In this document: in pieces, positions 12,056 to 35,231 of the stretch
How positions within the stretch are numbered: position 1 is the first letter of the stretch
Layout: the number at the start of each line of letters is the position of its first letter
IMG/VR virus record: IMGVR_UViG_3300006868_000018
Coordinates: 1-64,000 of that record
Strand: one strand, 5' to 3'
Length of the DNA stretch: 64,000 nucleotides
From: an uncultured virus (IMG/VR IMGVR_UViG_3300006868_000018)
Lineage: Duplodnaviria > Heunggongvirae > Uroviricota > Caudoviricetes
Program-made: the position numbers and the translations under genes
The notes under the pieces: model-generated
The model's database searches: none
Seen by the model: only the letters and a program-made list of their open reading frames with translations
What the model was told of the DNA's origin: nothing

Positions 12056-12056
12056 C

Positions 12057-20333: not shown

Positions 20334-20355
20334 GTAACTGAATTAAGGAACTGTT

Positions 20356-20937: not shown

Positions 20938-22434
20938 ATGAGATACATAGGATTCTCTGAGTTCTATCATGATGCGGGAGTCAGTGTCATCGAAGAAGAT
21001 GGCACTGTCTCCTATGCAACACATGCAGAACGATGGTCTAAGAAAAAGAATGATGCGATAATCCCACCTGAGTTGTGGGATTTTGTAGGCCAAGAAAAAG
21101 GTGATGTGGTCACCTTTTATGAGGACCACCACATCAAGTATAACGTTCGTGGTGGTTTGGCGGTAGAACCTAAGTTAGACAATTACAAAAAAGAACTCCA
21201 TTACCACCACAAGATCCCTGTGTATGAGTCTCTTGTGTATGACAAGAAAGAACTACATCACACATCCCATTGTGCGGGTGCATTCTATACACGCCCTTGG
21301 CAGTCAATAGAAGATACCGTAATGGTGTCGATTGATGGTGCTGGAGAAGTCCAGACTGGGGTCATCCTAGATCACAACTTCAATCTAATCAAAGAGTGGC
21401 ACTACCCTAAGTCCGTTGGGTTAATCTATGCAATGGTCACTGAGTTTCTTGGTCTGAGACCTCTAGAGGACGAATACGTGGTCATGGGATTATCATCCTA
21501 TGGTGAACCCGTATTCGCCGACTGGTTGTACGAACAATATCACAAGTTCTCTGATATCGCAAAGGAGATAGAAGAGGGTACTCTCATTGGGGTCAGTCAT
21601 TCGGATAGAGAGAAACGAAGAAAGGTTTTCCGTAAGGAACTAAAATGGAAGTGTTACAACAACAAGGACCAAGACTCCGCTGCATCTGTACAGGAGTTTG
21701 CGGAACGTGCAATCCTTGAGATCATGCGTGAGGCGCGTAAACACGGATCTAAGTTAGTCTACTCTGGTGGATGTGCACAGAACGTTGTTACGAACTCTAA
21801 GATCGCAGAATTGTTTGATGAGGTTCACATTGCAATCGCTCCCGCAGACTCAGGGTCTTCTCTGGGGTGCGCCGCAAAAACGTGGGCGGATGAGACCGGA
21901 GGAACTCATCTTCGTTGGAACCCTTACTTAGGAACCAACATTGACCGTGAGATTAACCCGTCCGATGTTGTTGACCACTTATTGTCAGAACAATACTGTG
22001 GTATCGCAAACGGTAGATCAGAGTTTGGTCCACGTGCACTGGGTAACAGATCCTTGATTGCAGACGTTCGGTTTGATGTCAAGGATACGGTCAACGCAAT
22101 CAAACGGAGACAGAAGTATCGTCCATTTGCTCCTGCGATTCTCGAAGAGTATGCGGACCAATATTTCTCTGGTCCGATGAATGAGTACATGCAATTTACC
22201 AGTAAGGCATTACATGACTACAAGTCGGTGACCCATGTAGATGGAACCGCAAGGGTACAGGTTGTCCGTAAGGATTGTCAATCTATATTCCGTAAAATTA
22301 TTGAAGAGTACTATGAACGCACTGGTGTCCCTATGCTCTTGAATACTAGTCTTAACGTTAGGGGTAGACCTATGGTCGATGATCTTCGAGACGCTAAGAT
22401 TTGGGAAAGTACATATAACGTAAGGGTATTTTAA
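20938..22434 (+). CDS. Carbamoyltransferase (NodU/CmcH family)
   Basis: YHDAG, HHTSH, SIDGAGE, VMGLSSYG, GGCAQN, EFGPRALGNRS, RPFAP, HVDGTARVQ and LNTSLN motifs. Confidence 0.92.
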   Translation: MRYIGFSEFYHDAGVSVIEEDGTVSYATHAERWSKKKNDAIIPPELWDFVGQEKGDVVTFYEDHHIKYNVRGGLAVEPKLDNYKKELHYHHKIPVYESLVYDKKELHHTSHCAGAFYTRPWQSIEDTVMVSIDGAGEVQTGVILDHNFNLIKEWHYPKSVGLIYAMVTEFLGLRPLEDEYVVMGLSSYGEPVFADWLYEQYHKFSDIAKEIEEGTLIGVSHSDREKRRKVFRKELKWKCYNNKDQDSAASVQEFAERAILEIMREARKHGSKLVYSGGCAQNVVTNSKIAELFDEVHIAIAPADSGSSLGCAAKTWADETGGTHLRWNPYLGTNIDREINPSDVVDHLLSEQYCGIANGRSEFGPRALGNRSLIADVRFDVKDTVNAIKRRQKYRPFAPAILEEYADQYFSGPMNEYMQFTSKALHDYKSVTHVDGTARVQVVRKDCQSIFRKIIEEYYERTGVPMLLNTSLNVRGRPMVDDLRDAKIWESTYNVRVF

Positions 22435-22435
22435 T

Positions 22436-22783
22436 ATGAAGGCAGGTAAAGTTTGGGGTCAGACGGAACTGATCGAAGCGAACGGTGTACTAGAGTTTCA
22501 TCGTATCGAAATGAAGAAGGGTGGTGTGTGTTCCAAACACAAACACAAGTATAAGTGGAACGGGTTCTTCTGTGAGTCCGGAGAACTACTCATTCGAGTG
22601 TGGAAGAACGCATATGATCTTGTTGATGAAACAATTCTCAAGCCCGGACAGTATACCAAGGTTGCGCCAGGCGAGTTTCACCAGTTCGAATGTTTGAAGG
22701 ATGGTGTCGCCTATGAATTGTACTGGGCGGAGTTCAACCATGATGATATTGAAAGAGAGTCCGTAGGGTTCCAACAGGTATAA
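22436..22783 (+). CDS. Cupin protein
   Basis: KVWG, SKHKH and PGEFHQF motifs. Confidence 0.8.
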   Translation: MKAGKVWGQTELIEANGVLEFHRIEMKKGGVCSKHKHKYKWNGFFCESGELLIRVWKNAYDLVDETILKPGQYTKVAPGEFHQFECLKDGVAYELYWAEFNHDDIERESVGFQQV

Positions 22784-22789
22784 AATATT

Positions 22790-23113
22790 ATGAAATTCAA
22801 AAGTTCAAGTATTGAAGGAACGGTTGTAAAAAATGATGATCGTTACATTGTAAAGGATAACACAACACTAAAAAATCTTGTTGTTAGTTCAACAAGATTA
22901 AATCCACGCAAAAGCACAAGTGGACACAAGCACGAAGGACAGGAAGAAGTTTACATGTTTCTTGAAGGCAGTGGCACTATGGAACTGGATGATGTAACTC
23001 ATAATGTTGAAGCAGGCGACACTGTGTTAATTGAGGACGGTGTGTTTCATCGTGTTCATGCAGGCAATGAAGAATTGTATTTTGTATGCGTGTTTGATGG
23101 AAGTAGAAAGTAA
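22790..23113 (+). CDS. Cupin_2 protein
   Basis: GHKHEGQEEVYMFLEGSG...AGD.VLI..GVFHRV. Confidence 0.85.
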   Translation: MKFKSSSIEGTVVKNDDRYIVKDNTTLKNLVVSSTRLNPRKSTSGHKHEGQEEVYMFLEGSGTMELDDVTHNVEAGDTVLIEDGVFHRVHAGNEELYFVCVFDGSRK

Positions 23114-23125
23114 CGAGACAAACGG

Positions 23126-23133
23126 TATAAATA
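23126..23133 (+). promoter_or_regulatory. T4-type late promoter TATAAATA
   Basis: Exact consensus upstream of ATG 23164. Confidence 0.8.
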
Positions 23134-23163
23134 CTTCCGACAATAACAATAAGAGAGGTAACC

Positions 23164-23502
23164 ATGTCGGAAGAAAAACAAACCTTAACTGTCGATAAGG
23201 ACAGTGATCTCAGTACAGCAGATTTGAATGGTGATGGTCACATCTCTAATGAAGAGTTGTCGATGCACCTTGAGTTCAAGAGAAGAGAACTCGAAGACAA
23301 AGACGCACAGAGAGACGCCATTCGTAAGATGGCTTGGTTCTCCCTGTTCGGACTTTTAGTCTATCCGTTAGGTATTGTAATCACTGCGGTTCTGGGTCTA
23401 GAAAAGGCTGCCGAACTTATTGCAGATATTGCACCTACCTACTTTGCATCGATTGCGGTTCTGGTGGCAGCGTTCTTCGGAGCAGACGCCTACAAGAAAT
23501 AG
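23164..23502 (+). CDS. Membrane protein with an EF-hand-like loop and two TM helices (holin-like candidate)
   Basis: DLNGDGHISNEE; two hydrophobic segments; late promoter. Confidence 0.65.
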   Translation: MSEEKQTLTVDKDSDLSTADLNGDGHISNEELSMHLEFKRRELEDKDAQRDAIRKMAWFSLFGLLVYPLGIVITAVLGLEKAAELIADIAPTYFASIAVLVAAFFGADAYKK

Positions 23503-23517
23503 ATAAGTACCTTTATT

Positions 23518-24384
23518 ATGAGAAAAGTTTCGTGGAGAGGTACGCCAGGCGTTGGAGATTTTATGTGGGCACTTAACTGTGCACACAACTACTCCTATGA
23601 ATTCAAAGAAACAGTAGACCTCACCTTCCATTGGGAACACGGTGAGGACTACCTTCATCACTTCGAAGATCCCGAAACCATAATCGAAAGACTCGAATAC
23701 ATTCACAACTTCTATCACCGGAAAGAGGATGTGGTGGTAAACCACGTCTTCAACTCAACAGATCCCATGTACTCCTCTTGGAAATTTTCTGATGATGTGA
23801 TCCAGAAAGATGGTGAACACAAACCAACCATAGTCGCCAAGGGGACAGAGAAAAAACGGTTCTGGTTCGAAGACGGTTGGTTTAATGACGAGAAGGGGAG
23901 GACACTACCCTACAACGACTGGGCGTTCAGACAAGACAGTTTTCTCCCAAAAGACGATAACAAGATAGTTGTCTGGACTCCTATCCTAAATGCAGAAACA
24001 CCAAGAACTTGGAAAAGACTCTTGCCAAACCGTGAATGGTATGGTATAATAAATCTACTTCGCCGCTCAGGGTTCAATGTAGTAGAGTTGTCTTATCGTA
24101 CTCCGGTAAGAGAGGCGATGTACCATATCTCTAACTGTAGACTAGTGTTCTGTTATGATGGTATGTGGCATTACATTGCAAGGAACTTCTTTAAACCCAT
24201 GATTGTGATGAGTGATCAGGGTGTGACTACATACCACACCCCTCAGGCTCAGAAGTTATCTCCGAATAAGGACGATAAGAGAAAGAATATATACGAGATG
24301 AAAAAGAACATGAACGAGTTTCTGGGTCTTCCGAAGAAGAGGGCCGTTGAATTTCAGAAAGCGATGCAGTGGATCTATGACTGA
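23518..24384 (+). CDS. Glycosyltransferase, GT-B fold (GT9/heptosyltransferase-like)
   Basis: PGVGDFMWAL N-terminus and CYDGMWHYIA C-terminal motif. Confidence 0.6.
   Translation: MRKVSWRGTPGVGDFMWALNCAHNYSYEFKETVDLTFHWEHGEDYLHHFEDPETIIERLEYIHNFYHRKEDVVVNHVFNSTDPMYSSWKFSDDVIQKDGEHKPTIVAKGTEKKRFWFEDGWFNDEKGRTLPYNDWAFRQDSFLPKDDNKIVVWTPILNAETPRTWKRLLPNREWYGIINLLRRSGFNVVELSYRTPVREAMYHISNCRLVFCYDGMWHYIARNFFKPMIVMSDQGVTTYHTPQAQKLSPNKDDKRKNIYEMKKNMNEFLGLPKKRAVEFQKAMQWIYD
24022..24050 (+). promoter_or_regulatory. Internal sigma70-type promoter upstream of the radical SAM gene
   Basis: TTGCCA-N17-TATAAT with an extended -10 TG. Confidence 0.5.
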
Positions 24385-25360
24385 TATTAAAATAGACAGA
24401 GCGGTTATTGAGGTTCAGGGTGCCTGTAACTTTGACTGTACCATGTGTCCCCAAGACAAACGTGCGGGAGGTAGACACAAGGGGTTCCTAACCAAGATGA
24501 GTCTTCTAGAGTTTGAAGACAACGTGTATGACTGTGTACAACACGGACTTCGAGTAGTGAACCTAGATGGTTCTGGTGAGGCGACGATTAATCGTAACCT
24601 ACCCGAATACATCAAGATCGTTAAGAAGTATAACGCACAGGCGATTATCTTCTCGAACGGTTTTCGTATGCGTGGTCAGTTCATGAGAGATTGCGTAGAC
24701 GCTGGTCTCGATTTCTTTCGGTTCTCTTTCATTGGACCAACACCCGAACTCTACGATAAGTGGATGCACAACACACGGGGAAGTTCATACGAACTGATCA
24801 AACAAAACGTCAAAGAGATGAAGGAGTACGTCGATCAAACTGGTAGCGGTTGTGTTGTGGAGACCTATCACTTGATCACAGACAACGATAACCTAGAATG
24901 GGAACTAGATAAGTACAAAGAACTAGTCGAAGAACTTGGTGTCAAAACAGAAATTTGGAAGATGCATAACTGGTCTGGTGCTTGGGACATTGGAAAGAAT
25001 GCACGAAAAGGTGAGGTAAAAACTTGTGGAAGGCCTTTTAGTCCTGACGTTGTTATCCGTGCTGGCGGTCTTGATGGTCAACGGGGTGCTGTTCATCCTT
25101 GTTGCCAAGTCCTTGGTAGAGACGAAGAAGCCGTCCTTGGACACACCAGTCAAAACACAATCGAAGAGATTATTCGGGGAGAAGAGTACTCTGCGTTGAG
25201 ACAGGCTCATCGTACTGGAGACTATCCCGATTACTGTAAGTCCTGTGATTTCTTATTAGATGATCCAGAGGTGCTCGTGTATACAAATCACGATAGAGAC
25301 CTATACAAGATGATCGGGACTGAATTTGATCTAAACGACTATCGGGAGGTAGTAGAATGA
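24377..25360 (+). CDS. Radical SAM enzyme with SPASM/twitch domain
   Basis: CNFDCTMC (CxxxCxxC), GSGE, and C-terminal C..PF...HPCC...CKSC. Confidence 0.9.
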   Translation: MTDIKIDRAVIEVQGACNFDCTMCPQDKRAGGRHKGFLTKMSLLEFEDNVYDCVQHGLRVVNLDGSGEATINRNLPEYIKIVKKYNAQAIIFSNGFRMRGQFMRDCVDAGLDFFRFSFIGPTPELYDKWMHNTRGSSYELIKQNVKEMKEYVDQTGSGCVVETYHLITDNDNLEWELDKYKELVEELGVKTEIWKMHNWSGAWDIGKNARKGEVKTCGRPFSPDVVIRAGGLDGQRGAVHPCCQVLGRDEEAVLGHTSQNTIEEIIRGEEYSALRQAHRTGDYPDYCKSCDFLLDDPEVLVYTNHDRDLYKMIGTEFDLNDYREVVE

Positions 25361-25587
25361 AATCAATAGTTAAGTGGTTTAAAGATTTGTTTTTAGAAGA
25401 GTTTGAGGTCACTATCTGGTTCAAGGGTGGTACAGAATACAGTCCGTCAGAGTTTAAACGGGACTGGCGTATGAAGAAGATCATTACCAAGAAACAAACT
25501 CACTTTGTTGGTATTGATATTGACGGTAACATGGTTGAAATCAAAACAACAACCCCATTTGATTATAGGATTAGGAAGATACATTGA
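25357..25587 (+). CDS. Hypothetical protein
   Basis: GGAGG RBS; coupled to neighbours. Confidence 0.65.
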   Translation: MKSIVKWFKDLFLEEFEVTIWFKGGTEYSPSEFKRDWRMKKIITKKQTHFVGIDIDGNMVEIKTTTPFDYRIRKIH

Positions 25588-26369
25588 GACGTTTAATATA
25601 TCAGGTAGCGGTAGGTAAACCCTCTCAACTTTACGAACACTGTATTAAGAGTGTCTCGAACTACTGTAAGTATCATGGAATTGGTCACATAGTACAGAGA
25701 CAACCGATATTTCGTATTGCTCCCGATCCCTTTAACATGGGTCGATCCCGCGAGTCCTTCGAGAAGTACGGTGGTTACCTACCTATCTTTGAGAAAGAGG
25801 TTGCGTTCAATTATCTGGATGAGTATGACCAGATCGCAATCGTGGATGCTGACATCTACATCCGTCCTAACTCCCCCAATATCTTCGAAGACTTTGGGAC
25901 AGACAGGGCGTTCGGTGCGGTCATCGAACGGGAGATGCCTATCAGGAGTTGGTACATCGACAAGATAATCAACTACTCTCGTATGCAGTACGGACAACTC
26001 CACAACAACAAAGTTGATTTCAAACCAACAGCGGCAGGGTTCGAGTATGCGAACATGGGGTTGATCCTACTCAACAGTGAGAAGTTTAAACCTTTCCTCA
26101 AGGGGCAGACAGGTAAACAGTTTCTCGAACGTGCAGAGTTCAAGAACTTTGTTGATGGTGTGGGCCCTTGGAAGTGGAGTACAGATCAAACACTACTAAA
26201 CTACTTTGTTAAGAAGTACAACGTTCCTTTCAGGAAAATGCACTGGAAGTGGAACGGTCTATACACCGCAAATGACAAGATAGAAGATTGTCACTTCGTC
26301 CATTTCTTCCTGAAGGATAAACTACCTAATCAGGGAGAGGATGTTGTGGAATTGATGAATCGGATATGA
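25584..26369 (+). CDS. Glycosyltransferase, GT-A fold (GT8-like)
   Basis: IVDADIY, NMGL, TDQTLLN, WKWNG and FVHFF motifs; TTG start. Confidence 0.8.
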   Translation: MRRLIYQVAVGKPSQLYEHCIKSVSNYCKYHGIGHIVQRQPIFRIAPDPFNMGRSRESFEKYGGYLPIFEKEVAFNYLDEYDQIAIVDADIYIRPNSPNIFEDFGTDRAFGAVIEREMPIRSWYIDKIINYSRMQYGQLHNNKVDFKPTAAGFEYANMGLILLNSEKFKPFLKGQTGKQFLERAEFKNFVDGVGPWKWSTDQTLLNYFVKKYNVPFRKMHWKWNGLYTANDKIEDCHFVHFFLKDKLPNQGEDVVELMNRI

Positions 26370-27160
26370 AACCCAAAGTAGCGATGGGGTTGTGTTACCC
26401 TTCGGGTTCGGGTGGCATGTTCCTTACGGAATTGATCTACCCAACCACGGATGATAAGTCCGGTAAGTACGAGACTAATCCAGGCTGTAACCGTTCCGTA
26501 TCTCACAATGAGTATGGTGGTGCACAAGAGTGTGTCTTCGTTGATAACACCGATGGACCCCTTGAGGCGAACGAGAAGTCTATCCTTGTTGCGAAGTTAA
26601 ATATCCACAAGTATCTACCGTTCTATGACTGTCCGATTACATATCAGATAGATGTACAGGACGATGAGTCCTACGCATTTACGCAAGAACTCTTCTTCTT
26701 AAAAAAATACCTTGGGGGGTATCCTCAGTACGAAGAAGAGTTTAAGGACGTATTCCAAGAGTCTGGACTGTCTGAACTGTTGTCTGAATTCAAGAGTATA
26801 CATCCCTATTCAAAGATCGCCACGGATCTCTATCGAATGTACCTAGAAGTAGGTCAGATAAACAGAGATATGGTGTTGAGTCAATGCAGAACAATTTATT
26901 CAGAATACCTTGACAGGGGACAAAAATCAAGGTATAATAAGAAAGAACGTTGGGACAGGGATACTAATATTGATCGTAGTGCGTTGTATGATCCAGAAGA
27001 GATAAAGAAGCACACGCACCTAGAGGTGATCAGTTATGCCGATCTGTTTCTAAACGGTAAACAGACTTGGACAATCTGGGATAGTTACCTAGAGGAGATA
27101 GGAGAGTACACAGAAAGAAACTGGAGACTCATCGAACAGTTTGAGGACGAATTCTTATAA
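26366..27160 (+). CDS. Hypothetical protein, sulfotransferase-like P-loop candidate
   Basis: N-terminal YPSGSGGMFL and C-terminal ISYADLF. Confidence 0.45.
   Translation: MKPKVAMGLCYPSGSGGMFLTELIYPTTDDKSGKYETNPGCNRSVSHNEYGGAQECVFVDNTDGPLEANEKSILVAKLNIHKYLPFYDCPITYQIDVQDDESYAFTQELFFLKKYLGGYPQYEEEFKDVFQESGLSELLSEFKSIHPYSKIATDLYRMYLEVGQINRDMVLSQCRTIYSEYLDRGQKSRYNKKERWDRDTNIDRSALYDPEEIKKHTHLEVISYADLFLNGKQTWTIWDSYLEEIGEYTERNWRLIEQFEDEFL
26910..26938 (+). promoter_or_regulatory. Internal sigma70 consensus promoter
   Basis: TTGACA-N17-TATAAT about 270 nt upstream of ORF 27211. Confidence 0.65.
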
Positions 27161-27163
27161 ATA
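27156..27163 (+). promoter_or_regulatory. T4-type late promoter TATAAATA
   Basis: Exact consensus upstream of ATG 27211 (AGGAGA RBS). Confidence 0.8.
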
Positions 27164-27210
27164 AAGAAGGTGAACATCTATATTAAAAGAGTGATTAACA
27201 GGAGAACCTT

Positions 27211-27909
27211 ATGTTAGAACCACAAGAGTTTGTGAAGAAAATTCGCAACGAAAACCAAGCCCTCTTCGAGGCGTCTAAGATGAATGTCAAGGCGTACTTC
27301 GAAGGTGACCTTTCCGAAGAGGAAATGGTCGATCACTTCATTGGTCGCATGGTCAATGAACGTATGAACATGTCTGAGATTTCTATGCAGATCGCAAATG
27401 CAGCGGATGACGCAGACCCCAAAGAATTAGAACTTCTTTCTAAACAAGCCGCAGACGAGGCGAAACACTATCGCATGGTCAAGGAAGTTATCGAACACAT
27501 CTCTGGTGAGGAGATCGATGCAGCCTCTGCAATCCGCAAGGAACGTGAGATGGATACCGCAAAGGGTGCGACTCTGTTAGAGAAGTATGGTGCAGAGAAT
27601 GACGAAGCAGTTCTCGCCGCGTATCAGTTGGTTGCGGAAGGACGTGCGGAAGCAGTCTGGAACCAGATGGCAGACACCATCGAAGACTCATTCATTTCAA
27701 GTCGTTATCGTGAGATCGCAAAGGACGAAGGTTTCCACAGTGCAATCGGTGGATACAAACTACGCAAGGTTGCAACAGACGAAGAGACACAGAACCGTGT
27801 CCAACGTGTTGTTGAAGGTATGCGTAAAGACCTTTTTGAAATCTCGTGTGCAAACACAGTTGAAGCGACTGGATCACGTGAACTCGTAAACGAAGCTTAC
27901 GGTTGGTAA
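27211..27909 (+). CDS. Ferritin-like di-iron protein
   Basis: Helical sequence with E...DEAKH...E...DEGFH di-iron ligand pattern. Confidence 0.75.
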   Translation: MLEPQEFVKKIRNENQALFEASKMNVKAYFEGDLSEEEMVDHFIGRMVNERMNMSEISMQIANAADDADPKELELLSKQAADEAKHYRMVKEVIEHISGEEIDAASAIRKEREMDTAKGATLLEKYGAENDEAVLAAYQLVAEGRAEAVWNQMADTIEDSFISSRYREIAKDEGFHSAIGGYKLRKVATDEETQNRVQRVVEGMRKDLFEISCANTVEATGSRELVNEAYGW

Positions 27910-27912
27910 ATC

Positions 27913-28476
27913 ATGAAAATTGGACTCACTCAACGAGTCCTCACGTTTCCTAACACTGGAATAGTTCATGACGCTTTAGAACATGGTTGGTACAAGTTCC
28001 TAAAGGGTCATGAACTCATTCCTATCCCAAATCGTGAAGACTTAGATTATGAAACCCTCTCAGACGAATTGGATCTACTCATCATAACAGGTGGGCGGAA
28101 CGACGATATTCGTATCATCACAGAAGTAGGGATCGCCACAGAGATGGTGACCGAAGGTAAACCCGTACTTGGTATTTGTCACGGGGCGTTTCTACTCACC
28201 TCAATTCTGGGTGGATACGTCGAAGGTGATAAAATTAAGGAACAACACTACATAACAGAACACAACGTTTTTTATGATGGAAGACCTTACTGGGTCAATA
28301 GTTATCACGATATCTGGATTGCAGAACCACCGCCCGGATCTGTAGTACTTGCAACTGATCCAGAGGGAGACTGTGAATCGTGGTATAAAAACAACATTGG
28401 TGCGATAGTATGGCATCCAGAAAGAATGGAGAAACCCTTCATTCCGACAGAGATTTTAGAGGTGACAGGATTATGA
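27913..28476 (+). CDS. Class I glutamine amidotransferase / peptidase C26 (gamma-glutamyl hydrolase)
   Basis: IGLTQR, ITGG.D, LGICHG (Cys nucleophile), VNSYH and WHPER motifs. Confidence 0.85.
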   Translation: MKIGLTQRVLTFPNTGIVHDALEHGWYKFLKGHELIPIPNREDLDYETLSDELDLLIITGGRNDDIRIITEVGIATEMVTEGKPVLGICHGAFLLTSILGGYVEGDKIKEQHYITEHNVFYDGRPYWVNSYHDIWIAEPPPGSVVLATDPEGDCESWYKNNIGAIVWHPERMEKPFIPTEILEVTGL

Positions 28477-29165
28477 AGAACAACATGTTCCATCTCCATC
28501 ACGGTGAAACGTTTCAGGTAAACGATATCTGGAGATATGACGTTCAGGTGTGGAAAGGACAATACGAAGAAGTGTCGGAAGGTTGGCAGGACCATAACAG
28601 TTATGTGATGGGCAAGTCTTGCAACTTTCGAAGTAACAACAGTGGGTGGAGTATCAAAGACTCGAACTTCGCCGCTTCGGTGAACTCAGGGTTTCAGGCA
28701 GAAACACTGGATGAGGACTCCACACTAGTCAACATCAAATACTATGGACTTGGGATGAACGACGAACGTTTGTTTGTACCCAACGCCCGTGGTGTAACAG
28801 GTAATCTATCCTACATGGATGGTGGTACTAACACCACCGCAGTCAATCCGGGCCGATTAGGACTTCCGGTCATCAACTACGTGCACTTCCCCAAAGGAAT
28901 GCAACAAACACTCCATACTCACCCAAGTCAACGTATCGGTCTTATCCTCAGTGGATCCGGTCAGATCGAACTTGACAACAACGAAGTGTTCCCCATTAAC
29001 AGGGGTGACGTTTGGGTTATGGAAAGAAACGTTCTACATAATTTTATGTGTAACAAAGGTGAAGACGTAACCCTTTTCGTGTTTGCGCCTGACTCTGGTA
29101 CAGGCCCAACAGATGAAGTTAACCCATTGAAGGTACGTACCTATGTCGGACAACAACGAGTATAA
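28473..29165 (+). CDS. Cupin-domain protein
   Basis: QTLHTHPSQRIGLILSGSG...VLHNF...FAPDS..GPTDE. Confidence 0.75.
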   Translation: MKNNMFHLHHGETFQVNDIWRYDVQVWKGQYEEVSEGWQDHNSYVMGKSCNFRSNNSGWSIKDSNFAASVNSGFQAETLDEDSTLVNIKYYGLGMNDERLFVPNARGVTGNLSYMDGGTNTTAVNPGRLGLPVINYVHFPKGMQQTLHTHPSQRIGLILSGSGQIELDNNEVFPINRGDVWVMERNVLHNFMCNKGEDVTLFVFAPDSGTGPTDEVNPLKVRTYVGQQRV

Positions 29166-29814
29166 CCGAAACAGACCAATCGGAAAACACATTCTATTGG
29201 TCACAGGCCCACAGGGTTCTGGTAATCACTTATTCAGTAAAATCCTTGGTCTCAGCGAACATGTCTATGGTTGGGACTTTGGAGAGAAGTATTGGATTCC
29301 GAGTGATGAGGAACCCTTTGCAGAATGTTGGGTCAATCCGGAACTGACCGTTCCTACCCTAGAGAAGATCAAAGAGGACTACGTTGTCGCAAACGTCAGT
29401 GTCCCATTTGTCTTTGACGGAGAGAAACGAATTCCCGCCATTCAGGAGTTCGTTGATGAAGCCAAGAGTGCGGGTCATAGAGTAACTGTTTGTATCGTCT
29501 CTCGTGACCGTAACATCAACTGTCTTCAACAGGAAAGGGTAAGGGACGAAATAACCCTACCTACTGCGATGGCGTACTATCGTTGTCTTGATTGCGACTT
29601 TGCGTTTCTATCCCACGAAACTTTATACCTACATAAAGGTATGTACTTAAAGTATTTGTCGAGGACTCTAGGATTTCCTATTGACTACGACAACCCAAGA
29701 GTGTATGATATACTGGTAGAAGATCAGAATAACAAATATGTAAAATATGTTGAGGAGCACTGGTTAGATAATGAAGTCTGGAAAGGTCTTAGACCCAAGT
29801 CTGAAAGAAAATAG
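29143..29814 (+). CDS. Sulfotransferase-like P-loop protein
   Basis: LLVTGPQGSGNHLFSKIL, IVSRD and FLSHE motifs. Confidence 0.6.
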   Translation: MSDNNEYNRNRPIGKHILLVTGPQGSGNHLFSKILGLSEHVYGWDFGEKYWIPSDEEPFAECWVNPELTVPTLEKIKEDYVVANVSVPFVFDGEKRIPAIQEFVDEAKSAGHRVTVCIVSRDRNINCLQQERVRDEITLPTAMAYYRCLDCDFAFLSHETLYLHKGMYLKYLSRTLGFPIDYDNPRVYDILVEDQNNKYVKYVEEHWLDNEVWKGLRPKSERK

Positions 29815-30385
29815 GTATATCCTATTCACAGGTGCGCCAGGCTCTCGTTGGTCTGGTGTGTCTAATAACATTTGGATCGCACCCGACTTCGATCACACCG
29901 ACTCTACACCTGAACGAAAATACACACACAACAACGGACTGGTTCATGGTGGTGCATACTTTGACCCCATGATGGAGTTCGACTTTGATCCCTCAAACTG
30001 GGACTTGCCATTTAGTGGTGAAGGTGTCCGGTTGATCAAGTCACACACACTTTCAACCCAACTACAGAACTTTCACAAGTACCGGATTATTCTGGTCTAT
30101 CGAAACGACTATGAGTGTTGGAAGTGGTGGAATGAGTGTGGAGGTTTTGATATAACCTACCCGAACTACGCTTGGTACAAAAATCAAGAAAACATGTTTG
30201 ACCAGATTCAAAGACAGAATCAGGCGATAATGCAATTCATATATAAGAACGAAAATAAAGTAACTCAATGTGATAACAACTTAGAGGTTCTGAAGTTACT
30301 TGACCTAACTTGGAAATTAGATCCTTCGGTCATAACAGATGAATACTCTAAGAAGGATGTGAAAGTTTATGTCTACAGACCTTAA
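29771..30385 (+). CDS. Sulfotransferase-like P-loop protein
   Basis: ILFTGAPGSRWSGV, LIKSH and LVYRN motifs. Confidence 0.6.
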   Translation: MKSGKVLDPSLKENRYILFTGAPGSRWSGVSNNIWIAPDFDHTDSTPERKYTHNNGLVHGGAYFDPMMEFDFDPSNWDLPFSGEGVRLIKSHTLSTQLQNFHKYRIILVYRNDYECWKWWNECGGFDITYPNYAWYKNQENMFDQIQRQNQAIMQFIYKNENKVTQCDNNLEVLKLLDLTWKLDPSVITDEYSKKDVKVYVYRP

Positions 30386-30923
30386 TCCACACATGGATTT
30401 TTTGAAGGATTATTTTACTAACACGTGGCCTAGTTCCAGAACCGCTGGTTTAGATGGTTACTACTGGACTGGGTTTCGACTGATTGATGAAGTGAAAAGA
30501 GAAGAAAGGGTATTAGATGTCGGTTGCGGAGTCAATCCTTTTAAGCGTCATATTGATCTACTCCACGGTATCGATATTACTGATATAGGTGCGGATGAAG
30601 TATGTCCGATTGAAGACTATGAAGTTGTCGATATGTACGAGGATAAATATGACGTTGCATTCTGTCTGGGTAGTATCAACTTTGGATCGTATGATCTTGT
30701 TGAATTGCAATGCAAGAGAGTGTGTGAGGCACTAAAGGAAAAATCTAGGATCTACTGGAGGTGCAATCCGGGCCACAGAGATCATGGTAATGATAGGGTA
30801 GGTGAGATACCCTTCTTCAACTGGACGATAGATCATCACATCGATCTATCAAGAAAGAACGGGTTTGAGGTGACCGAATTGATGCCTGACAGGAATAGGA
30901 TGTACGTGAAATGGGAACGTTAA
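30369..30923 (+). CDS. Class I SAM-dependent methyltransferase
   Basis: VLDVGCG, GIDI and YDVAFCLG motifs. Confidence 0.85.
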   Translation: MSTDLNPHMDFLKDYFTNTWPSSRTAGLDGYYWTGFRLIDEVKREERVLDVGCGVNPFKRHIDLLHGIDITDIGADEVCPIEDYEVVDMYEDKYDVAFCLGSINFGSYDLVELQCKRVCEALKEKSRIYWRCNPGHRDHGNDRVGEIPFFNWTIDHHIDLSRKNGFEVTELMPDRNRMYVKWER

Positions 30924-31561
30924 GAGAATTATTCGACAAGTGGGATTGCGACAAAGGTACTAAGAAACACTGTTACGACAACTGTTACGAGCAGTATTTC
31001 TGGGACGTGAAGGATGACCAACTCAATCTTCTTGAGATTGGTTGTTTTCGGGGGGAGAGTACTGCCGCATTTTTGGAATATTTTCCTCATGCGACTATTT
31101 ACACAATCGACATCTTTGAGAGGACTCATCCCGATAGTCTTGATGTCCTGAAGGATGAACGTGTGAAGTGGTTGAAGTATGATAGTTGTCACGCCGCACT
31201 GCCGAATGCAATCCGTAGGATGTGGGGTAACGATATCAAGTTTGACTTTATTATCGATGATGGTGCACACTGGCCTGAAGCGAACCGAAAGACTTTCGAA
31301 AACTGTTTCCCGTTTCTAAAACAAGACGGGGTGTACTTCATCGAAGACGTTTACATGTTAGATCGGGATTATGCCGCTAACGACCCTTGGGTAAAGAAAC
31401 AACCCGATAGGTACAAGATCGGAGAACACATCCGATTGATGAACACCATCGATAAGTACGATGTCAAACACTATGACTACCACGAACGTGAGTACATGCA
31501 TCTGGGGGCGATATGTAGAAATCCCGACTCTTATATCTTAAGGGTAATGCATGGATCGTAA
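30911..31561 (+). CDS. Class I methyltransferase (Methyltransf_24 / sugar O-methyltransferase-like)
   Basis: LLEIG, FDFIIDDGAH and GVYFIED motifs. Confidence 0.85.
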   Translation: MGTLRELFDKWDCDKGTKKHCYDNCYEQYFWDVKDDQLNLLEIGCFRGESTAAFLEYFPHATIYTIDIFERTHPDSLDVLKDERVKWLKYDSCHAALPNAIRRMWGNDIKFDFIIDDGAHWPEANRKTFENCFPFLKQDGVYFIEDVYMLDRDYAANDPWVKKQPDRYKIGEHIRLMNTIDKYDVKHYDYHEREYMHLGAICRNPDSYILRVMHGS

Positions 31562-32240
31562 ACTCTTCATACACATCCCCAAAAACGGTGGTATGACTCT
31601 CCGCAGAAATGTGGAGTTACGCAAACGTCTGATACTTGCACACCCGACTCACCATTGTAATAGGACATACACCAAACGTCTCGAAGAAAAGATGCGAGCC
31701 ACGGGTGATGATATGGGGTACGAACACGCCCGATGGAGAGACGTGGATAATACGATAAGAAACACCTATAAGTCTTTTGCGATAGTTCGAAACCCTTGGG
31801 CAAGAGTTGTATCTCGTTACTGGTTTGCAAAGAAGGTCATTGAGGTCGAATACAATTCGAACGTCTACGGTAACAAAGAGTATGCGGATGTATCATCCTT
31901 CGAAGCGTTCCTTGAGGAACGTCACAAGTGGGGTGGTGAAGAATTTATGTGGCATCGTGCAGTGCGGGGTTGGTATCCCGCATACGATCACGTGTGTGAC
32001 AAAGAGGGTAATGTAAGGTGCGACATCCTTCGGTTTGAGAACTACAACGATGATATCAAAGACTATTTCAAGGTACTGTTCGATCCGGAACCTCGTAACG
32101 TAACAGGACTCTTGACAGACCCCTATCAGTCCATGTATAATGACAAGACTATACAGGTAGTTGCGGACTGGTACAAGAAGGACATTGACTACTGGGGGTT
32201 CGACTTTGATACAGGGGCGACTAAGAACTACTGGCGATGA
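31551..32240 (+). CDS. Sulfotransferase family 2
   Basis: FIHIPKNGGMT, VRNPWARVVS, LRFEN and WYKKDIDYWGF motifs. Confidence 0.85.
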   Translation: MDRKLFIHIPKNGGMTLRRNVELRKRLILAHPTHHCNRTYTKRLEEKMRATGDDMGYEHARWRDVDNTIRNTYKSFAIVRNPWARVVSRYWFAKKVIEVEYNSNVYGNKEYADVSSFEAFLEERHKWGGEEFMWHRAVRGWYPAYDHVCDKEGNVRCDILRFENYNDDIKDYFKVLFDPEPRNVTGLLTDPYQSMYNDKTIQVVADWYKKDIDYWGFDFDTGATKNYWR

Positions 32241-33181
32241 ACTTGGTAGAAAGAATACGTATGGCGAATGAGATAGAAAATGCAGAACCCACGGTTACCG
32301 ATTTAGATGGTGACCGTCATATTAAAGCAGTCATCATCTCTCTGTTCCATAACGCAGCTGCGACACACGCAACTCGTAACCTCTTAAAGAGTATTGAGAT
32401 AACGGGTTCGAAGATCAATCCGGTTGTGATGGATGCCACTACACCCACCACACTGGGTAAAGGAATGGGTGAGATTTATTACCTCAAGGGTAAACACCTT
32501 CAGTGGACTTGGCCTGCAACACCAGAAACAAGTGGGTTGGATCTTGCAACCGGACTGTACAAGAAAGCGTATATCGCCAACGATCAGAACAAAGTCATTG
32601 CATGTATGGTATCTCACATGAGAGCCTGGCAGTACTGTATTGACATGAACGAACCTGTTATGGTTCTGGAACAGGACGCCCTGTTTATTCGCAAGTTTGT
32701 GTGGAAGGACATCTCAGATCCCGAACCACTTAGACTAACAACGGACTGGTTTGATAGGTGGAACGACACAAAGGAGATGATGGTCACAGGATGGGATATT
32801 CCTAAAAGAAGACAGGTCATGGATGAGTGTTTGTCCAGAGAACCTATTGGTAGTTTTGCGGGAGGTATCCTTGGACTCAACAGTCCTATCGGTGCAACAC
32901 GCAAGGCATCTGTTTTCCACAATGCGTTGTTTGGTAAGTATGGGTTCCATAAGGTTCCCTCTGTTGATCAGATCGGAGACGATCCTCTACCTCAAGGTCT
33001 TGCAGGAAACTCTGCATACATCATCAAACCTTGGGCCGCAAAGAAACTCCTAGATAAAGTGAATGAAATTGGAATGTGGCCTAACGATGCACTGATGTGC
33101 AAACAGTTCTTCCCTTGGATGCAAGTGATGTGGCCTTATTACACTGTAGTGCAGGGAGTGAAGTCTACTACAACAGGATAG
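32237..33181 (+). CDS. Glycosyltransferase family 25-like
   Basis: ACMVSHMRAW, VLEQDA and AYIIKP.AAKKL motifs. Confidence 0.8.
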   Translation: MNLVERIRMANEIENAEPTVTDLDGDRHIKAVIISLFHNAAATHATRNLLKSIEITGSKINPVVMDATTPTTLGKGMGEIYYLKGKHLQWTWPATPETSGLDLATGLYKKAYIANDQNKVIACMVSHMRAWQYCIDMNEPVMVLEQDALFIRKFVWKDISDPEPLRLTTDWFDRWNDTKEMMVTGWDIPKRRQVMDECLSREPIGSFAGGILGLNSPIGATRKASVFHNALFGKYGFHKVPSVDQIGDDPLPQGLAGNSAYIIKPWAAKKLLDKVNEIGMWPNDALMCKQFFPWMQVMWPYYTVVQGVKSTTTG

Positions 33182-33183
33182 TT

Positions 33184-33837
33184 ATGAAGAGTTTTGTTAT
33201 CACTATTATGGACAATCCTAAGTCCGTCGAGTCCGCAGATCGATGTATCGCAAGTGCAAAAAAGATCGGGTTACAGGTCGAGAAGTTCAAGGCGATTACT
33301 CCAAACGATAGTCCCTTCTCAATCGCAAAGAGTGAGGGTATAGACCCTGATGGTTTCTCTGAGGTTTATTCTCGACACGCAAACTGTCTGTCTGCGTTCC
33401 TGTCACACTATTCTCTGTGGAAGAAGTGTTTACTTGAAATCGGTCAACCTATAGTCATCTTTGAACATGATGCAGTTGTGATCAATGAGTTACCCGCATC
33501 TAATATTTTTAAGGGGGCAGTAAATCTGGGTGCACCTAGTTACGGTAAATTCAATCAACCCTCTTTCTTTGGTATGGGTCCACTCACAACTAAGAGATAT
33601 TTTCCCGGCGCCCATGCGTATATGGTAAACCCTAAAGGTGCGGAAGCGTTCATAAGAACCGCAAAAATATCTCCAAAACCCACCGATGTTTACCTAAATA
33701 TAGATACATTCCCTTGGTTGCAAGAACATTACCCCTTCGTCGCAAAAGCAGATGATAGTTTCACAACCATACAAAAAGAAGAGGGATGTCTCGCAAAACA
33801 CAACTATGGTGAAGGATATGTCATCGAGAATTTATAG
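33184..33837 (+). CDS. Glycosyltransferase family 25-like
   Basis: AFLSHYSLW, IFEHDA and GAHAYMVNPKGA motifs. Confidence 0.8.
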   Translation: MKSFVITIMDNPKSVESADRCIASAKKIGLQVEKFKAITPNDSPFSIAKSEGIDPDGFSEVYSRHANCLSAFLSHYSLWKKCLLEIGQPIVIFEHDAVVINELPASNIFKGAVNLGAPSYGKFNQPSFFGMGPLTTKRYFPGAHAYMVNPKGAEAFIRTAKISPKPTDVYLNIDTFPWLQEHYPFVAKADDSFTTIQKEEGCLAKHNYGEGYVIENL

Positions 33838-34579
33838 AAAAGTCACGTTCGGTACACCACCGGCAGAACCACCTTATAGGTTACCGGACGATTTTCCGGA
33901 AGCGAACCTAATGCCTCGTTCTCTTTGGTTAGAGAACAGAGAATCGAACATCCAAGTGACTACCGAAGGTGGTCAAATATTAACCTTTATCTGGAACCCC
34001 AATACTGGGATGGATAGAATCAAATCTTGGTTGTTCGAACACATTAGAAAATTTCGAATTGAAGATTTCTCCACAACCGATACCATGTATCAAACGCAAT
34101 CGGAGTTCGCCGCCACGTTGACGGATAACAATGTGTTGGATGGTCTGGGTACAACAATCACGGTAGTCAGAGACCCCTACACTAGGATACGTGAACAATA
34201 CGAACAGTGGCACAGAGGTAACGCAACGTCCACAGATCCGGATAGAAAACGTTTTGCAAATCACAGTTTTAACAGATTCATCGAAACTGAGATCCCTTGG
34301 AGACACGGCCGGTTCTTAGAACAAAAGAGATTTGTCGAACCCGCTGACATTGTGTTGAAGTATGAGGATCTAGAAGAAGAGTTTATGTCTAAGGTTGTTG
34401 TGCCTTACTTCGATACCTCGTTCGGGGGACTAAGAACCCTACCGAAGGTTGACCTACGGGGCGCACTAGACGATAAGAGTTTTTTGTTAGAGTGCAGTGA
34501 CATGACCATCTCATATATAAACCAGTACGATGAGTATGTGTTCAATGGAGATTATGGGTATAACACACATGTTGGATAA
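33818..34579 (+). CDS. Sulfotransferase family 2-like (divergent)
   Basis: FIWNPNTG, VVRDPYTR and LKYEDL motifs. Confidence 0.6.
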   Translation: MSSRIYRKVTFGTPPAEPPYRLPDDFPEANLMPRSLWLENRESNIQVTTEGGQILTFIWNPNTGMDRIKSWLFEHIRKFRIEDFSTTDTMYQTQSEFAATLTDNNVLDGLGTTITVVRDPYTRIREQYEQWHRGNATSTDPDRKRFANHSFNRFIETEIPWRHGRFLEQKRFVEPADIVLKYEDLEEEFMSKVVVPYFDTSFGGLRTLPKVDLRGALDDKSFLLECSDMTISYINQYDEYVFNGDYGYNTHVG

Positions 34580-35231
34580 GACTTTCCTTACGGGTTGTGA
34601 CGAAGTGACCGAATGGCAGTTGCCTTGGTTCATCCGCAACTATTTTGAAAATAATGACACGCACCTGTTTGTGTGTGACTTTGGTATGAGTGAAGACATG
34701 GCGGACTTCGTTGACAAACTCGAAGAGAATGTCACTCGTTATGAAATCAAGACAGAGGCGGTGGGGTGGTTCAAGAAACCTCGCGCCATGTTGGATATTT
34801 CCTTCCAGTCAAAGAAGTCTTGTTGGCTTGATACGGACTGTGAGATATTCGATAACATCGACAGTATCTTCGAACACACTGTTCCTTTCAAAATAAGTAT
34901 GTGTGAAGACAGACCGTGGACTCGAAGACGGGGTGAACATGGAATGTGGTACAACTCTGGAGTAGTCGTATTCGAAGGAACACCCAACATCCTACGTGCA
35001 TGGGCGTCTGAGTGCATCAACAAACCTATACAGGGAGATCAAGAAACTCTCTATGCAATGTTCGCTGGTGACGATATTGCAAAGATGGCAGTCATAGAAC
35101 CGTTACCGCATAAATACAATACACTACGGTTAGACTACATAGATAATATCGCAGTAAAGAACCCTCTGATTGTACACCACACTGGTAAGAAGGGTAAGGA
35201 CTTGATCAGGGAGATCATGCAGAATGTTTAG
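34569..35231 (+). CDS. Glycosyltransferase, GT-A fold (GT8-like)
   Basis: WFKKP, WLDTD, NSGVV, GDQE and HHTG motifs. Confidence 0.8.
   Translation: MLDKTFLTGCDEVTEWQLPWFIRNYFENNDTHLFVCDFGMSEDMADFVDKLEENVTRYEIKTEAVGWFKKPRAMLDISFQSKKSCWLDTDCEIFDNIDSIFEHTVPFKISMCEDRPWTRRRGEHGMWYNSGVVVFEGTPNILRAWASECINKPIQGDQETLYAMFAGDDIAKMAVIEPLPHKYNTLRLDYIDNIAVKNPLIVHHTGKKGKDLIREIMQNV

Follow-up and report, generated by a model that had tools for sequence, protein, structure and literature searches.

A conserved gene pair for a predicted di-iron protein and a gamma-glutamyl amide hydrolase in uncultured aquatic phages

Gene content, expression signals and conservation of the locus

The window (the whole stretch of 64,000 nucleotides that was analysed, from the uncultured Caudoviricetes virus IMGVR_UViG_3300006868_000018) carries seven tightly coupled ORFs, all on the same strand and separated by intergenic gaps of +3 to -44 nt (Table 1). 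An earlier note on this DNA described them as a self-contained biosynthetic cassette, and both the coupling and the protein classes have been confirmed: a ferritin-like di-iron protein (FER), a C26/class I glutamine amidotransferase (GAT), a cupin (CUP), two proteins of the sulfotransferase fold (ST1 and ST2) and two methyltransferase-like proteins (MT1 and MT2). The cassette is not self-contained, however, and its 3' end is open. MT2 shares 11 nt with a Sulfotransfer_2 gene, this gene shares 4 nt with a GT25 gene, and no terminator-like site is listed on the + strand between 29583 and 33335.

Table 1. Genes and expression signals at the FER–GAT locus (window coordinates)
Feature	Position	Strand	Description
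Consensus sigma70 site, TTGACA-N17-TATAAT	26910-26938	+	perfect match; inside upstream ORF 26366-27160
T4-type late promoter, TATAAATA	27156..27163	+	55 nt before FER start
Leader motif (TATATTAA..AGAGTG) and Shine-Dalgarno AGGAG	27179..27204	+	conserved
FER	27211-27909	+	232 aa; ferritin-like di-metal carboxylate protein; obligate core
GAT	27913-28476	+	187 aa; predicted class I/C26 gamma-glutamyl amide hydrolase; obligate core
CUP	28473-29165	+	230 aa; cupin; accessory
ST1	29143-29814	+	223 aa; sulfotransferase fold; accessory
ST2	29771-30385	+	about 200 aa; sulfotransferase-like; accessory
MT1	30369-30923	+	184 aa; class I SAM-methyltransferase-like by motif; accessory, widespread
MT2	30911-31561	+	216 aa; Methyltransf_24; outside conserved module

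The late promoter attributed to the cassette was recovered as TATAAATA and is kept at related loci. Among 80 viral FER loci (41 near and 39 distant), such a promoter lies within 120 nt of the FER start in all 39 near loci with enough flanking sequence and in 6/39 distant loci, the 7-mer ATAAATA having a background of 2.3% of 120-nt windows. The sigma70 promoter noted earlier is a perfect consensus site but not a conserved part of the module: a site of at least 11/12 within 400 nt of FER was found in 4/39 near loci (background 8%), two of which are 100% identical to this phage, and it is probably an early promoter of this phage. An AGAGTG-type leader precedes FER in 37/39 near loci, and the full leader motif is found a single time in the 73.9 kb of this record.

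The expectation that these genes co-occur in related phages was borne out, but the seven-gene boundary was wrong, because the obligate unit consists of two genes. GAT adjoins FER at 79 of the 80 viral FER loci, FER adjoins GAT at 75 of 80 viral GAT loci, and the two are found together in 11/14 divergent loci. FER is missing from four GAT loci, and GAT from one FER locus whose flanks are complete. The linkage persists through inversions and reorderings, and a GAT match was found at none of 67 cellular FER loci. Apparent FER–GAT fusion proteins in databases proved to be stop-codon artefacts. The six genes from FER to MT1 are intact in 35/38 close relatives, while MT2, present in 28/41 near and 0/39 distant loci, is part of the surrounding glycosyltransferase island and not of the conserved module. 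The core is thus FER and GAT, and the remaining cassette genes are accessory or island-borne.

Among close relatives, FER is conserved at 82-92%, compared with 50-85% for its neighbours (one swapped ST1 allele excluded). The distance correlation (Spearman) of FER with GAT (0.37) lies below those with MT1 (0.70), HYD (0.66) and ST2 (0.56), and therefore no special co-evolution of FER and GAT is seen. A 90% identity threshold divides the FER family into at least 2,349 clusters, and none of 50,697 deposited phage records matches it; since FER is common and far more conserved than its neighbours, it serves a strongly selected phage function.

Fold and ancestry of FER and GAT

The AF2 model of FER (pLDDT 94.2) has ten helices, including extra ones at both ends, and its best structural matches are MiaE (2ITB, Z 16.6) and ADO-like proteins (5UX1 and 8FHC; ADO-like Z 16.1), the group spanning Z 15-16.6 at 11-15% identity. 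The predicted metal ligands E50, E83, H86, E143, E173 and H176, carried by helices 36-62, 70-98, 132-156 and 160-187, are invariant in 76/76 phage-clade rows and show the 4C/2H pattern E..ExxH..E..ExxH that is also found in MiaE and the ADO-like proteins. This is the ligand set that defines the FDO superfamily, in which six ligands are supplied by four helices (PMC13108848). FER models as a MiaE/ADO-type 2-His/4-Glu oxygenase, although its metal site may hold Mn or Mn/Fe instead of two Fe. Unlike these relatives, FER is tied in its phage clade to a hydrolase, is acidic (net charge -19; family median pI 4.9) and has invariant polar residues of its own around the first metal helix (H42, R46, N49, N53, Q79 and Q139); at R46 and N53 the cellular FER branch mostly has Ala.

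HDO proteins use 3-His/3- or 4-carboxylate ligand sets, and their fold scores against FER come close (CADD, Z 15.2-15.6); an HDO assignment was rejected, as FER has only two invariant His at the site and Ile169 in the third position. The N-oxygenases SznF, CmlI and AurF are of the 3H/4C type (PMC13108848), and in DnfA the third His, in the motif H209-E213-H216, lies four residues before the last ExxH, according to the available parts of PMC9478400. Ile169 occupies this position in 76/76 FER rows and in four divergent paralogues, which places FER outside the AurF/DnfA/TsnB7 family and rules it out as an N-oxygenase of the AurF, CmlI, DnfA or TsnB7 type. AurF matches to FER are weak (9/94 rows, best E 0.0026).

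The GAT triad C89-H168-E170 is kept in 45/45 rows, and the PF07722 score (46.3 bits, cut-off 20.5) assigns the protein to the class I GATase/peptidase C26 family. As proposed earlier, the hydrolase is of Cj1417-type and not of PuuD descent: the Cj1417-type model NF045546 matches 45/45 GAT homologues (best E 4.9e-32), compared with 4/45 for the PuuD model NF008471 (best E 7.4e-6). In a 36-row tree from which Cj1417 itself is absent, phage GATs cluster with kinase-linked hydrolases, apart from PuuD, with a support of 81/87 that is under the starred threshold. The five top plasmid matches were inspected: in four the gene comes immediately after that of a PEP-utilising enzyme, and in the fifth such a gene is found at a distance of 3.7 kb. 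PuuD enzymes are about 250 aa long and are partnered by the ligase PuuA; identification of GAT as PuuD was rejected on its 187 aa, the 4/45 matches and the lack of Gln-synt_C in five records. This glutamine-synthetase-type ligase was also not found in a Pfam scan of a complete relative (G001), which favours a ready-made host gamma-glutamyl compound as the substrate. NF045546 is the top NCBIfam model for the window GAT, yet its 50.4 bits fall far short of the equivalog cut-off of 250, and GAT bears Cys-His-Gly where its relatives bear Cys-Arg-Gly, suggesting that the substrate has changed. GMP synthase A models also score in 45/45 rows, and GAT is as short as glutaminase subunits.

Accessory partners

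CUP (Cupin_2, E 1.9e-9) has three invariant His (148, 150 and 189) and no Glu ligand in 18/18 rows. It occurs in 43/80 FER loci and travels together with ST1, which is present in 76/80 cupin loci; ST1, ST2 and MT1 are found in 62, 61 and 61 of the 80 FER loci, respectively. ST1 and ST2 are putative sulfotransferases, to judge from the fold of the former and the Pfam and Atlas matches of the latter. The ST1 model resembles PAPS sulfotransferases (TPST1/2 and the olefin synthase ST domain, Z 12), with Z 12.3, rmsd 3.8 and 166 aligned residues against TPST1, compared with Z 9.1 for the best kinase. ST2 gives weak family matches (Sulfotransfer_3 in 8/33 true homologues, best E 2.6e-5; Atlas 0.95). 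The loops GPQG[SA]GNH of ST1, which is atypical, and GAPGS[RK]WS of ST2 both differ from the usual PAPS-binding motif. The ST1 allele appears to have been swapped between phages. MT1 has no Pfam match and a best PDB profile match of E 0.044, and carries the LDVGCG motif in 32-33/33 rows and a conserved D69; MT2 matches Methyltransf_24 over the cut-off (E 3e-9).

The partners in other phages include a 2OG hydroxylase, an APS-kinase-like protein and TctC/TctA, with TctC present in 9/14 divergent loci, 20/80 GAT loci and none of the 41 near loci. At one locus (L210), the FER–GAT pair abuts an ammonium transporter gene and a PstS-like gene.

Possible chemistry of the module and its significance

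In the bacterial pathway, a kinase modifies the amide nitrogen of glutamine, and a Cj1417-type enzyme then cleaves off the glutamate. Cj1415-Cj1418 make CDP-phosphoramidate 3'-phosphate from glutamine, ATP and CTP, as the available parts of PMC11800397 describe. The phages resemble this Campylobacter O-methyl phosphoramidate pathway in their Cj1417-type GAT and, in some cases, in APS-kinase-like and cytidylyltransferase-like genes and methyltransferases, but the module has no Cj1416-type gene and FER occupies the position of the glutamine kinase. The PEP-utilising kinase was found in none of 16 phage records (0/11 by PF00391 and 0/5 more by PF01326), two of which are rated 100% complete and one of which, that of this phage, is 44% complete; the host may supply such a kinase. 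Since FER stands at the kinase position and no kinase was found in these records, phosphoramidate synthesis by the module, one of the products envisaged earlier, is unlikely.

The product of the pair is probably a small compound that contains nitrogen. We tentatively propose that FER oxidises a gamma-glutamyl amide nitrogen, that GAT releases the N-O unit and that the partners tailor it; the substrates, the oxidation at nitrogen, the sequence of the reactions and the product are what we infer by analogy. GAT would have been taken over from a bacterial Cj1415-1418-type phosphoramidate pathway, with the kinase lost in phages and replaced by FER. Late in infection, FER, with O2 and a host reductant, would oxidise the glutamine amide nitrogen to gamma-glutamyl hydroxamate, from which GAT would free or pass on a hydroxylamine unit. 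Swappable partners (cupin, two sulfotransferase-fold transferases and a methyltransferase; elsewhere the 2OG hydroxylase, APS-kinase-like protein and TctC/TctA) would tailor or carry the small N-O-containing product.

Two known systems offer parallels. TsnB9 is an asparagine-synthetase-type enzyme, unlike the class I GAT. In the TsnB6/7/9 cassette of trichostatin A and benzohydroxamic acid, as far as the accessible text of PMC13418202 and PMC11160463 goes, TsnB6/7 form glutamyl hydroxamate by oxidising glutamine, and TsnB9 transfers it; a non-heme iron oxygenase and a gamma-glutamyl amide cleaver are likewise combined, with a methyltransferase nearby, but TsnB7 is an AurF homologue and FER is without the third His. 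In DnfABC of Alcaligenes (PMC9478400, PMC11440038 and PMC13753816, each available in part), a ferritin-like di-iron enzyme and a class I glutamine amidotransferase likewise form an obligate pair, whose gene order varies. DnfA is 3-His/4-carboxylate, DnfC is YfeJ-like and the reductase DnfB is required, none of which applies to the phage module, and direct glutamine oxidation by DnfA is disputed in the available part of PMC11440038. No DnfB-like reductase or ferredoxin was found in the cassette, among 106 distant-locus neighbours or in the 166/185 G001 ORFs scanned.

MiaE and ADO, the closest folds, act on carbon. It is conceivable, if rather unlikely, that the oxidation by FER takes place at carbon or sulfur, on a host metabolite protected by a gamma-glutamyl group (a glutathione conjugate or gamma-glutamyl amine) that GAT only deprotects, or that GAT is a glutaminase feeding ammonia into the pathway. 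The 2-His/4-Glu site, the short GAT with its GMP synthase A matches and a DnfC-first model in the available part of PMC13753816 fit such chemistry, but no gamma-glutamyl ligase was found in the tested records and the GAT clade descends from enzymes cutting N-modified glutamine.

Modification of a macromolecule, either virion or host proteins (sulfation, hydroxylation or methylation) or tRNA (as by MiaE), is unlikely. The tyrosylprotein sulfotransferase and MiaE folds, the late promoters of near loci and the exchange of ST1 alleles, as in a specificity gene, are consistent with it, but the acidity of FER is not what a tRNA-binding protein would show, just two tRNA-Arg genes are present in G001, and TctC points to a soluble ligand.

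The earlier note had the cassette make a substituent, phosphoramidate-like or of another kind, for glycans of the virion or the host surface, which we regard as distinctly unlikely. The near-clade module does lie inside a glycosyltransferase island (GT25b-like in 38/41 and GT261-like in 39/41 loci), GAT is of Cj1417 descent and the window holds an APS-kinase-like and a cytidylyltransferase-like gene at 46852-47540; such an APS-kinase-like gene was not found in complete G001, however, and no glutamine kinase was found in the 16 records. None of the six window GT/rSAM families occurs at the 39 distant loci, whose 106 neighbour representatives yield no glycosyltransferase Pfam match. A glycan target is thus unsupported outside one clade, within which it is possible for a non-phosphorus group.

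Nutrient scavenging, in which TctA/TctC would import an organic acid, FER oxidise it and GAT free ammonium or glutamate, is improbable: the TctC/TctA neighbours and the transporter genes at L210 agree with it, but methyl- and sulfotransferase-type partners in about 60/80 loci are biosynthetic, TctC is missing from all near loci and late timing fits poorly. Storage ferritins, bacterioferritins and Dps are bare four-helix subunits that build 12- or 24-mer cages. That FER simply stores iron or, as a rubrerythrin, detoxifies peroxide, with a purely historical link to GAT, as its database names (rubrerythrin or ferritin-like) and weak Ferritin_2 matches (31/94 rows) might imply, is highly improbable, given its 232 aa with extra terminal helices, the lower scores of Dps and bacterioferritin chains (Z 10.5-11.5, compared with 15-16.6 for oxygenases) and a linkage that outlasts rearrangement. 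The points on which the earlier proposal had been made to depend therefore came out in its favour: the genes co-occur, the hydrolase does not group with PuuD and FER is unlike a storage ferritin.

The N-oxidation proposal may be extended, speculatively and with little confidence, to a 2-His/4-Glu di-iron enzyme unrelated to AurF that replaced glutamine kinase, so that thousands of aquatic phage lineages would make, late in infection, a small molecule derived from hydroxylamine (a hydroxamate, or an N-O compound that is O-methylated or O-sulfated). Its tailoring enzymes would be exchanged as alleles, jumbo phages would have a TctC receptor of their own, and the product would be a phage-encoded specialised metabolite or signal.

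No description of the FER–GAT module was found in the searched literature, and current annotation labels the pair 'rubrerythrin' plus 'PuuD'. Many uncultured aquatic phages carry an undescribed pair of a predicted two-iron oxidase and a hydrolase borrowed from a bacterial capsule pathway, a core small enough for direct biochemical test. Should the extended reading above be right, the module would also supply reactive nitrogen in infected cells, a source so far overlooked. Should FER oxidise the glutamine amide, hydroxylamine chemistry would have a further, independent route, and there would be evidence that specialised metabolites are built by phages.

Co-occurrence of the di-iron protein and the hydrolase

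A scan of viral contigs for FER, the ferritin-like di-iron protein, confirmed 230 stretches, and among the best 80 of these 230 the gene of the gamma-glutamyl hydrolase GAT was present in 79 loci, the sole miss being a 1.2 kb fragment. Scanning in the other direction, from the GAT alignment, recovered FER in 75/80 loci, the misses being one truncated locus and four true orphans. In the same best 80 of 230 FER loci, cleaned profiles placed the sulfotransferase-like genes ST1 and ST2 in 62 and 61 loci, the methyltransferase-like MT1 in 61 and the cupin CUP in 43; other partners were the hydroxylase-like HYD (24), an APS-kinase-like gene inside the module (8) and TctC (8). Uncleaned ST2 counts were set aside because a fused ORF in L042 had drawn 13 rows of an unrelated hydroxylase-like family into alignment A4. 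HYD is absent from the window record, and single rows of it weakly match Asp_Arg_Hydrox and 2OG-FeII_Oxy_3. All six genes from FER to MT1 occur in 35 of the 38 near (closely related) loci that have a 3 kb downstream flank; the cupin is missing from the remaining three. Both gene order and strand vary between loci. When 164 loci were collapsed at 90% FER identity, GAT was found in 51/52 clusters, a figure that is partly circular because the pool includes loci chosen by GAT. Given the co-occurrence counts in both scan directions, the obligate unit is FER plus GAT, and the other genes form a changing tailoring set. The co-occurrence in related phages anticipated by the earlier note is therefore real, but its seven-gene unit is not general, the second methyltransferase-like gene, MT2, being present in 28/41 near and 0/39 distant loci.

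The orphan GAT loci (L212, L219, L220 and L225) carry neither FER nor any further module gene in their flanks, and the three tested form one clade. A divergent FER branch of 14 loci carries GAT in 11, the three exceptions being two truncated loci and one true miss, and TctC in 9, and in 9/14 loci a tandem pair of FER paralogues, possibly a heterodimer, is encoded; in the two loci checked both paralogues have full ligand sets and are 42–49% identical to the window FER. These pairs precede GAT in L230, L232–L236, L239, L240 and L242, often with TctC/TctA. A search with the divergent cluster P0129 found no viral locus. GAT matches were absent from all 67 cellular FER-like loci (~29% identity), which are mostly from Rokubacteria/Methylomirabilota, with some Acidobacteria and others. 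This uncharacterised cellular branch (L083–L149) has a C-terminal HAPGC end, and in 59/69 genome loci the FER-like gene is closely followed by a transglutaminase-core/TPR gene cluster. Two close FER matches in genome bins carry the phage module itself; L082, where the join falls in an ORF with a CCA-adding enzyme as its C-terminal part, is probably a chimeric contig.

The FER–GAT junction is frequently in frame, which leads to false fusions in databases. The fusion clusters P0391 and P0392 were rejected, as a single Gln lies exactly at the stop position in all 10 long members checked; the N-terminal part of the P0392 fusion shares 100% identity with FER from L021, where the junction reads TGG TAG ATG, separate proteins of 231 and 184 aa occur in the same cluster, and these phages end genes with TAG. 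Such database entries are best read from their sequences as TAG=Q gene-calling artefacts, and they were left out of the counts.

Enzymes of the module

The predicted structure of FER is confident (pLDDT 94.2), and E50, E83, H86, E143, E173 and H176, on four helices of the model, are invariant in 76/76 phage-clade rows. This 4C/2H pattern is that of ferritin-like di-iron oxygenases and differs from the 3-His sets of HDOs, according to passages of PMC13108848. By fold FER comes closest, at 11–14% identity throughout, to MiaE (Z 16.6; 186 residues aligned at rmsd 3.1), followed by an ADO-like protein (Z 16.1; 189 residues at rmsd 2.9) and CADD (Z 15.6), and in a wide fold search 8FHC and CADD tied at Z 15.2, with cage proteins at 10.5–11.5; because helical bundles reach Z ~14 by chance arrangement, the fold assigns the superfamily and not the reaction. 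The automatic Atlas name, ribonucleotide reductase R2, was rejected because FER is 100 aa shorter, lacks the Tyr expected four residues after H86, and the phage has a separate R2-like gene. AurF, CmlI and DnfA were not among the 50 matches listed in the FER fold searches, though they may match below these; no viral structure matched at E 0.001 and no deposited phage record matched. Further invariant residues are H42, R46, N53, Q79, K118 and Q139, with N49 and C213 almost so; the cellular branch mostly has Ala in place of R46 and N53. We infer from the alignment a polar substrate pocket.

The GAT triad C89-H168-E170 is invariant in 45/45 rows. NF045546, the Cj1417 model, matches 45/45 GAT homologues, with a best E of 4.9e-32; three GMP-synthase models also match all 45, though their best values are weaker, and the PuuD model matches 4/45. 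The bacterial comparison was drawn from plasmid matches, the closest at 30–33% identity. Five of the ten best were inspected: in four the GAT relative comes immediately after a gene for a PEP-utilising enzyme, and in the fifth such a gene is 3.7 kb distant; an annotated cytidylyltransferase is next in three and an APS kinase nearby in two. These neighbourhoods are those of the Cj1415-1418 set, which passages of PMC11800397 describe as making CDP-phosphoramidate 3'-phosphate from glutamine. In a 36-row tree, built without Cj1417 itself, 27 phage GAT rows form one group (94/94 support) that joins five plasmid rows at 81/87, below the starred level, and apart from PuuD. The placement in the Cj1417 subfamily, made by eye in the earlier note, thus stands as ancestry, on the tree and the plasmid contexts, but not as membership: NF045546 is the best NCBIfam match of the window GAT, yet reaches 50/250 bits, and on this score GAT is not a Cj1417 equivalog.

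Among the partners, ST1 folds like a sulfotransferase, aligning with TPST1 over 166 residues at Z 12.3 and rmsd 3.8 against Z 9.1 for the best kinase, although Foldseek put an adenylate kinase first. ST2 matches Sulfotransfer_3 in 8/33 true homologues and sulfotransferase clusters in the Atlas (0.95). Both loops depart from the usual PAPS-binding motif, PDB profile searches with ST1 and ST2 gave nothing significant, and their profile comparison gave a probability of 3%, with the 13 unrelated rows then still in the ST2 set. ST1 is 96% identical in L011/L013, where its neighbours are 59–87% identical, and a variant of the window phage in sequencing run X14 carries a replacement there; these sequences point to allele swapping of ST1. 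Three His are invariant in CUP, which lacks a Glu ligand, and ST1 lies near it in 76/80 cupin loci; its cellular relatives amount to 2 plasmid matches (37% over half the length) of no interpretable context. The methyltransferase assignment of MT1 is made from its motif. Deposited phage records gave no match to CUP, ST1 or MT1, and those matching ST2 were two records from a single marine virus.

Genomic setting and expression

The window covers the opening 64 kb of a 73.9 kb record rated 44% complete, with the gene content of a T4-like myovirus. Of 17 sequencing-run rows holding the region 13 are labelled, as freshwater or aquatic metagenome, so a marine origin is not established. The seven same-strand ORFs and the late promoter described earlier were confirmed: TATAAATA lies within 120 nt of the FER start in 39/39 near loci with enough flank and in 6/39 distant loci, against 2.3% of random windows for the 7-mer ATAAATA. 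The consensus sigma70 site is a perfect match, but lies inside the upstream ORF and is not conserved (4/39 near loci versus 8% background); as one of seven perfect sites in the record, all on the + strand, it is probably a true promoter of the window phage. The TATATTAA..[AG]GTG leader motif is possibly a promoter or operator, and in one distant clade a longer leader follows it, in which a short inverted repeat is conserved ahead of the start. Contigs from three RNA libraries span FER together with either all of GAT or its start; they are silent on level, strand and start, DNA may be present, and they were not counted as evidence of expression. The cassette is not self-contained, since its run overlaps onward into the Sulfotransfer_2 and GT25 genes.

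Coordinates of features in the window and in two compared loci
Feature	Coordinates	Observation
IscU-like gene	12018-12434	Called by eye; NifU_N seen in complete relative genome G001; flanks ribonucleotide reductase genes
R2-like gene	12434-13426
AMP-binding-like gene	13993-15198	E 4e-7; flanks ribonucleotide reductase genes
Glycosyltransferase island	19427-26369 and 31551-35231	GT8-like, NodU-type carbamoyltransferase, two small cupins, radical SAM/SPASM, Sulfotransfer_2, two GT25; conserved in near clade only
Cupin gene	22790-23113	Absent from run X14
ORF, 264 aa	26366-27160	In 13/41 near loci; no family match; Gly/Ser-rich loop at start resembles ST1/ST2 loops by eye
Sigma70 site	26910
Late promoter TATAAATA	27156
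Leader motif TATATTAA..[AG]GTG	27179-27200	Ahead of FER in 38/78 loci; also in leaders of L051, L056-L075
Run FER-GAT-CUP-ST1-ST2-MT1-MT2	27211-31561	Gaps +3 to -44 nt
FER–GAT junction	27907-27915	In frame in 47/68 loci, often stop-ATG; TAA and TAG both used
Segment replaced in X14	29165-29834	653 other letters
Perfect sigma70 consensus	32112-32141	Within end of Sulfotransfer_2 gene
APS-kinase-like P-loop gene and cytidylyltransferase-like gene	46852-47540	The two genes overlap
L210	2190-8899	Single run: TctA, TctC-like, FER, GAT, ammonium transporter, PstS-like gene
L082	98-4730	Phage CUP, ST1, FER, GAT joined to archaeal genes, Nitrosopumilaceae bin

The proposal that the product decorates virion or host-surface glycans arose because the near-clade module sits within a glycosyltransferase island, and it found no support beyond that clade: six window glycosyltransferase and radical-SAM families were found in 0/39 distant loci, and none of 106 neighbour representatives within 5.5 kb of distant loci, many without any match, matched a glycosyltransferase family. 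The presence there of TctC/TctA, 2OG oxygenase and APS-kinase-like genes, and in L210 of an ammonium transporter and a PstS-like gene, instead favours a soluble small molecule as the product.

Proposed processing of a gamma-glutamyl amide

The PEP-utilising glutamine kinase suggested as a search target by the earlier note was found in none of 16 records, two of them rated complete (PF00391 in the window record and 10 relatives, PF01326 in 5 further records; controls matched in 14/14 and 13/14 genomes), and a search of 5 records for a glutamine-synthetase domain gave no match. In G001, where a Pfam scan covered 166/185 ORFs (150 at E 1e-4, 16 at E 1e-3), no such kinase, amide ligase or ferredoxin was detected among the 166, and no homologue of the window APS-kinase-like gene was found in this complete genome; the kinase may be supplied by the host. 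G001 (L244–L251) also encodes ribosomal protein S21, CsgF/CsgG, a CHASE2 cyclase, aspartate decarboxylase, IscA/IscU-like genes, a TonB plug domain and two tRNA-Arg genes.

FER directly precedes GAT, the position held by the glutamine kinase in bacterial operons. On the simplest reading FER would be a replacement enzyme that modifies a gamma-glutamyl amide, after which GAT would still remove the glutamate. More specifically, the glutamine amide would be oxidised to gamma-glutamyl hydroxamate before transfer or release, as passages of PMC13418202 and PMC11160463 report for TsnB6/7/9; a similar oxidation by DnfA/B/C is proposed, and disputed, in parts of PMC11440038 and PMC13753816. Against amide oxidation, no reductase was found with the module, and a mirror-tree test gave no special FER–GAT co-evolution (distance correlation 0.37, below the 0.70 of FER–MT1). 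Moreover, the nearest folds of FER act on carbon. FER also has Ile169 where DnfA-type oxygenases carry a third His, as described in passages of PMC9478400. FER thus lies outside the AurF/DnfA family, just as GAT is no Cj1417 equivalog, and what is claimed is a similar mode of action. Oxidation of the glutamine amide by FER, with GAT transferring or releasing the N-O unit, is put forward tentatively, as somewhat doubtful, and it is reasonably probable that the two enzymes act on a gamma-glutamyl amide as part of a small-molecule pathway.

A full-text literature search, limited to accessible main texts, returned no description of the module. FER–GAT is a real, widespread and undescribed phage module with a two-gene core, and would represent a variant of the known logic in which a glutamine amide is modified and the glutamate is then cut off.
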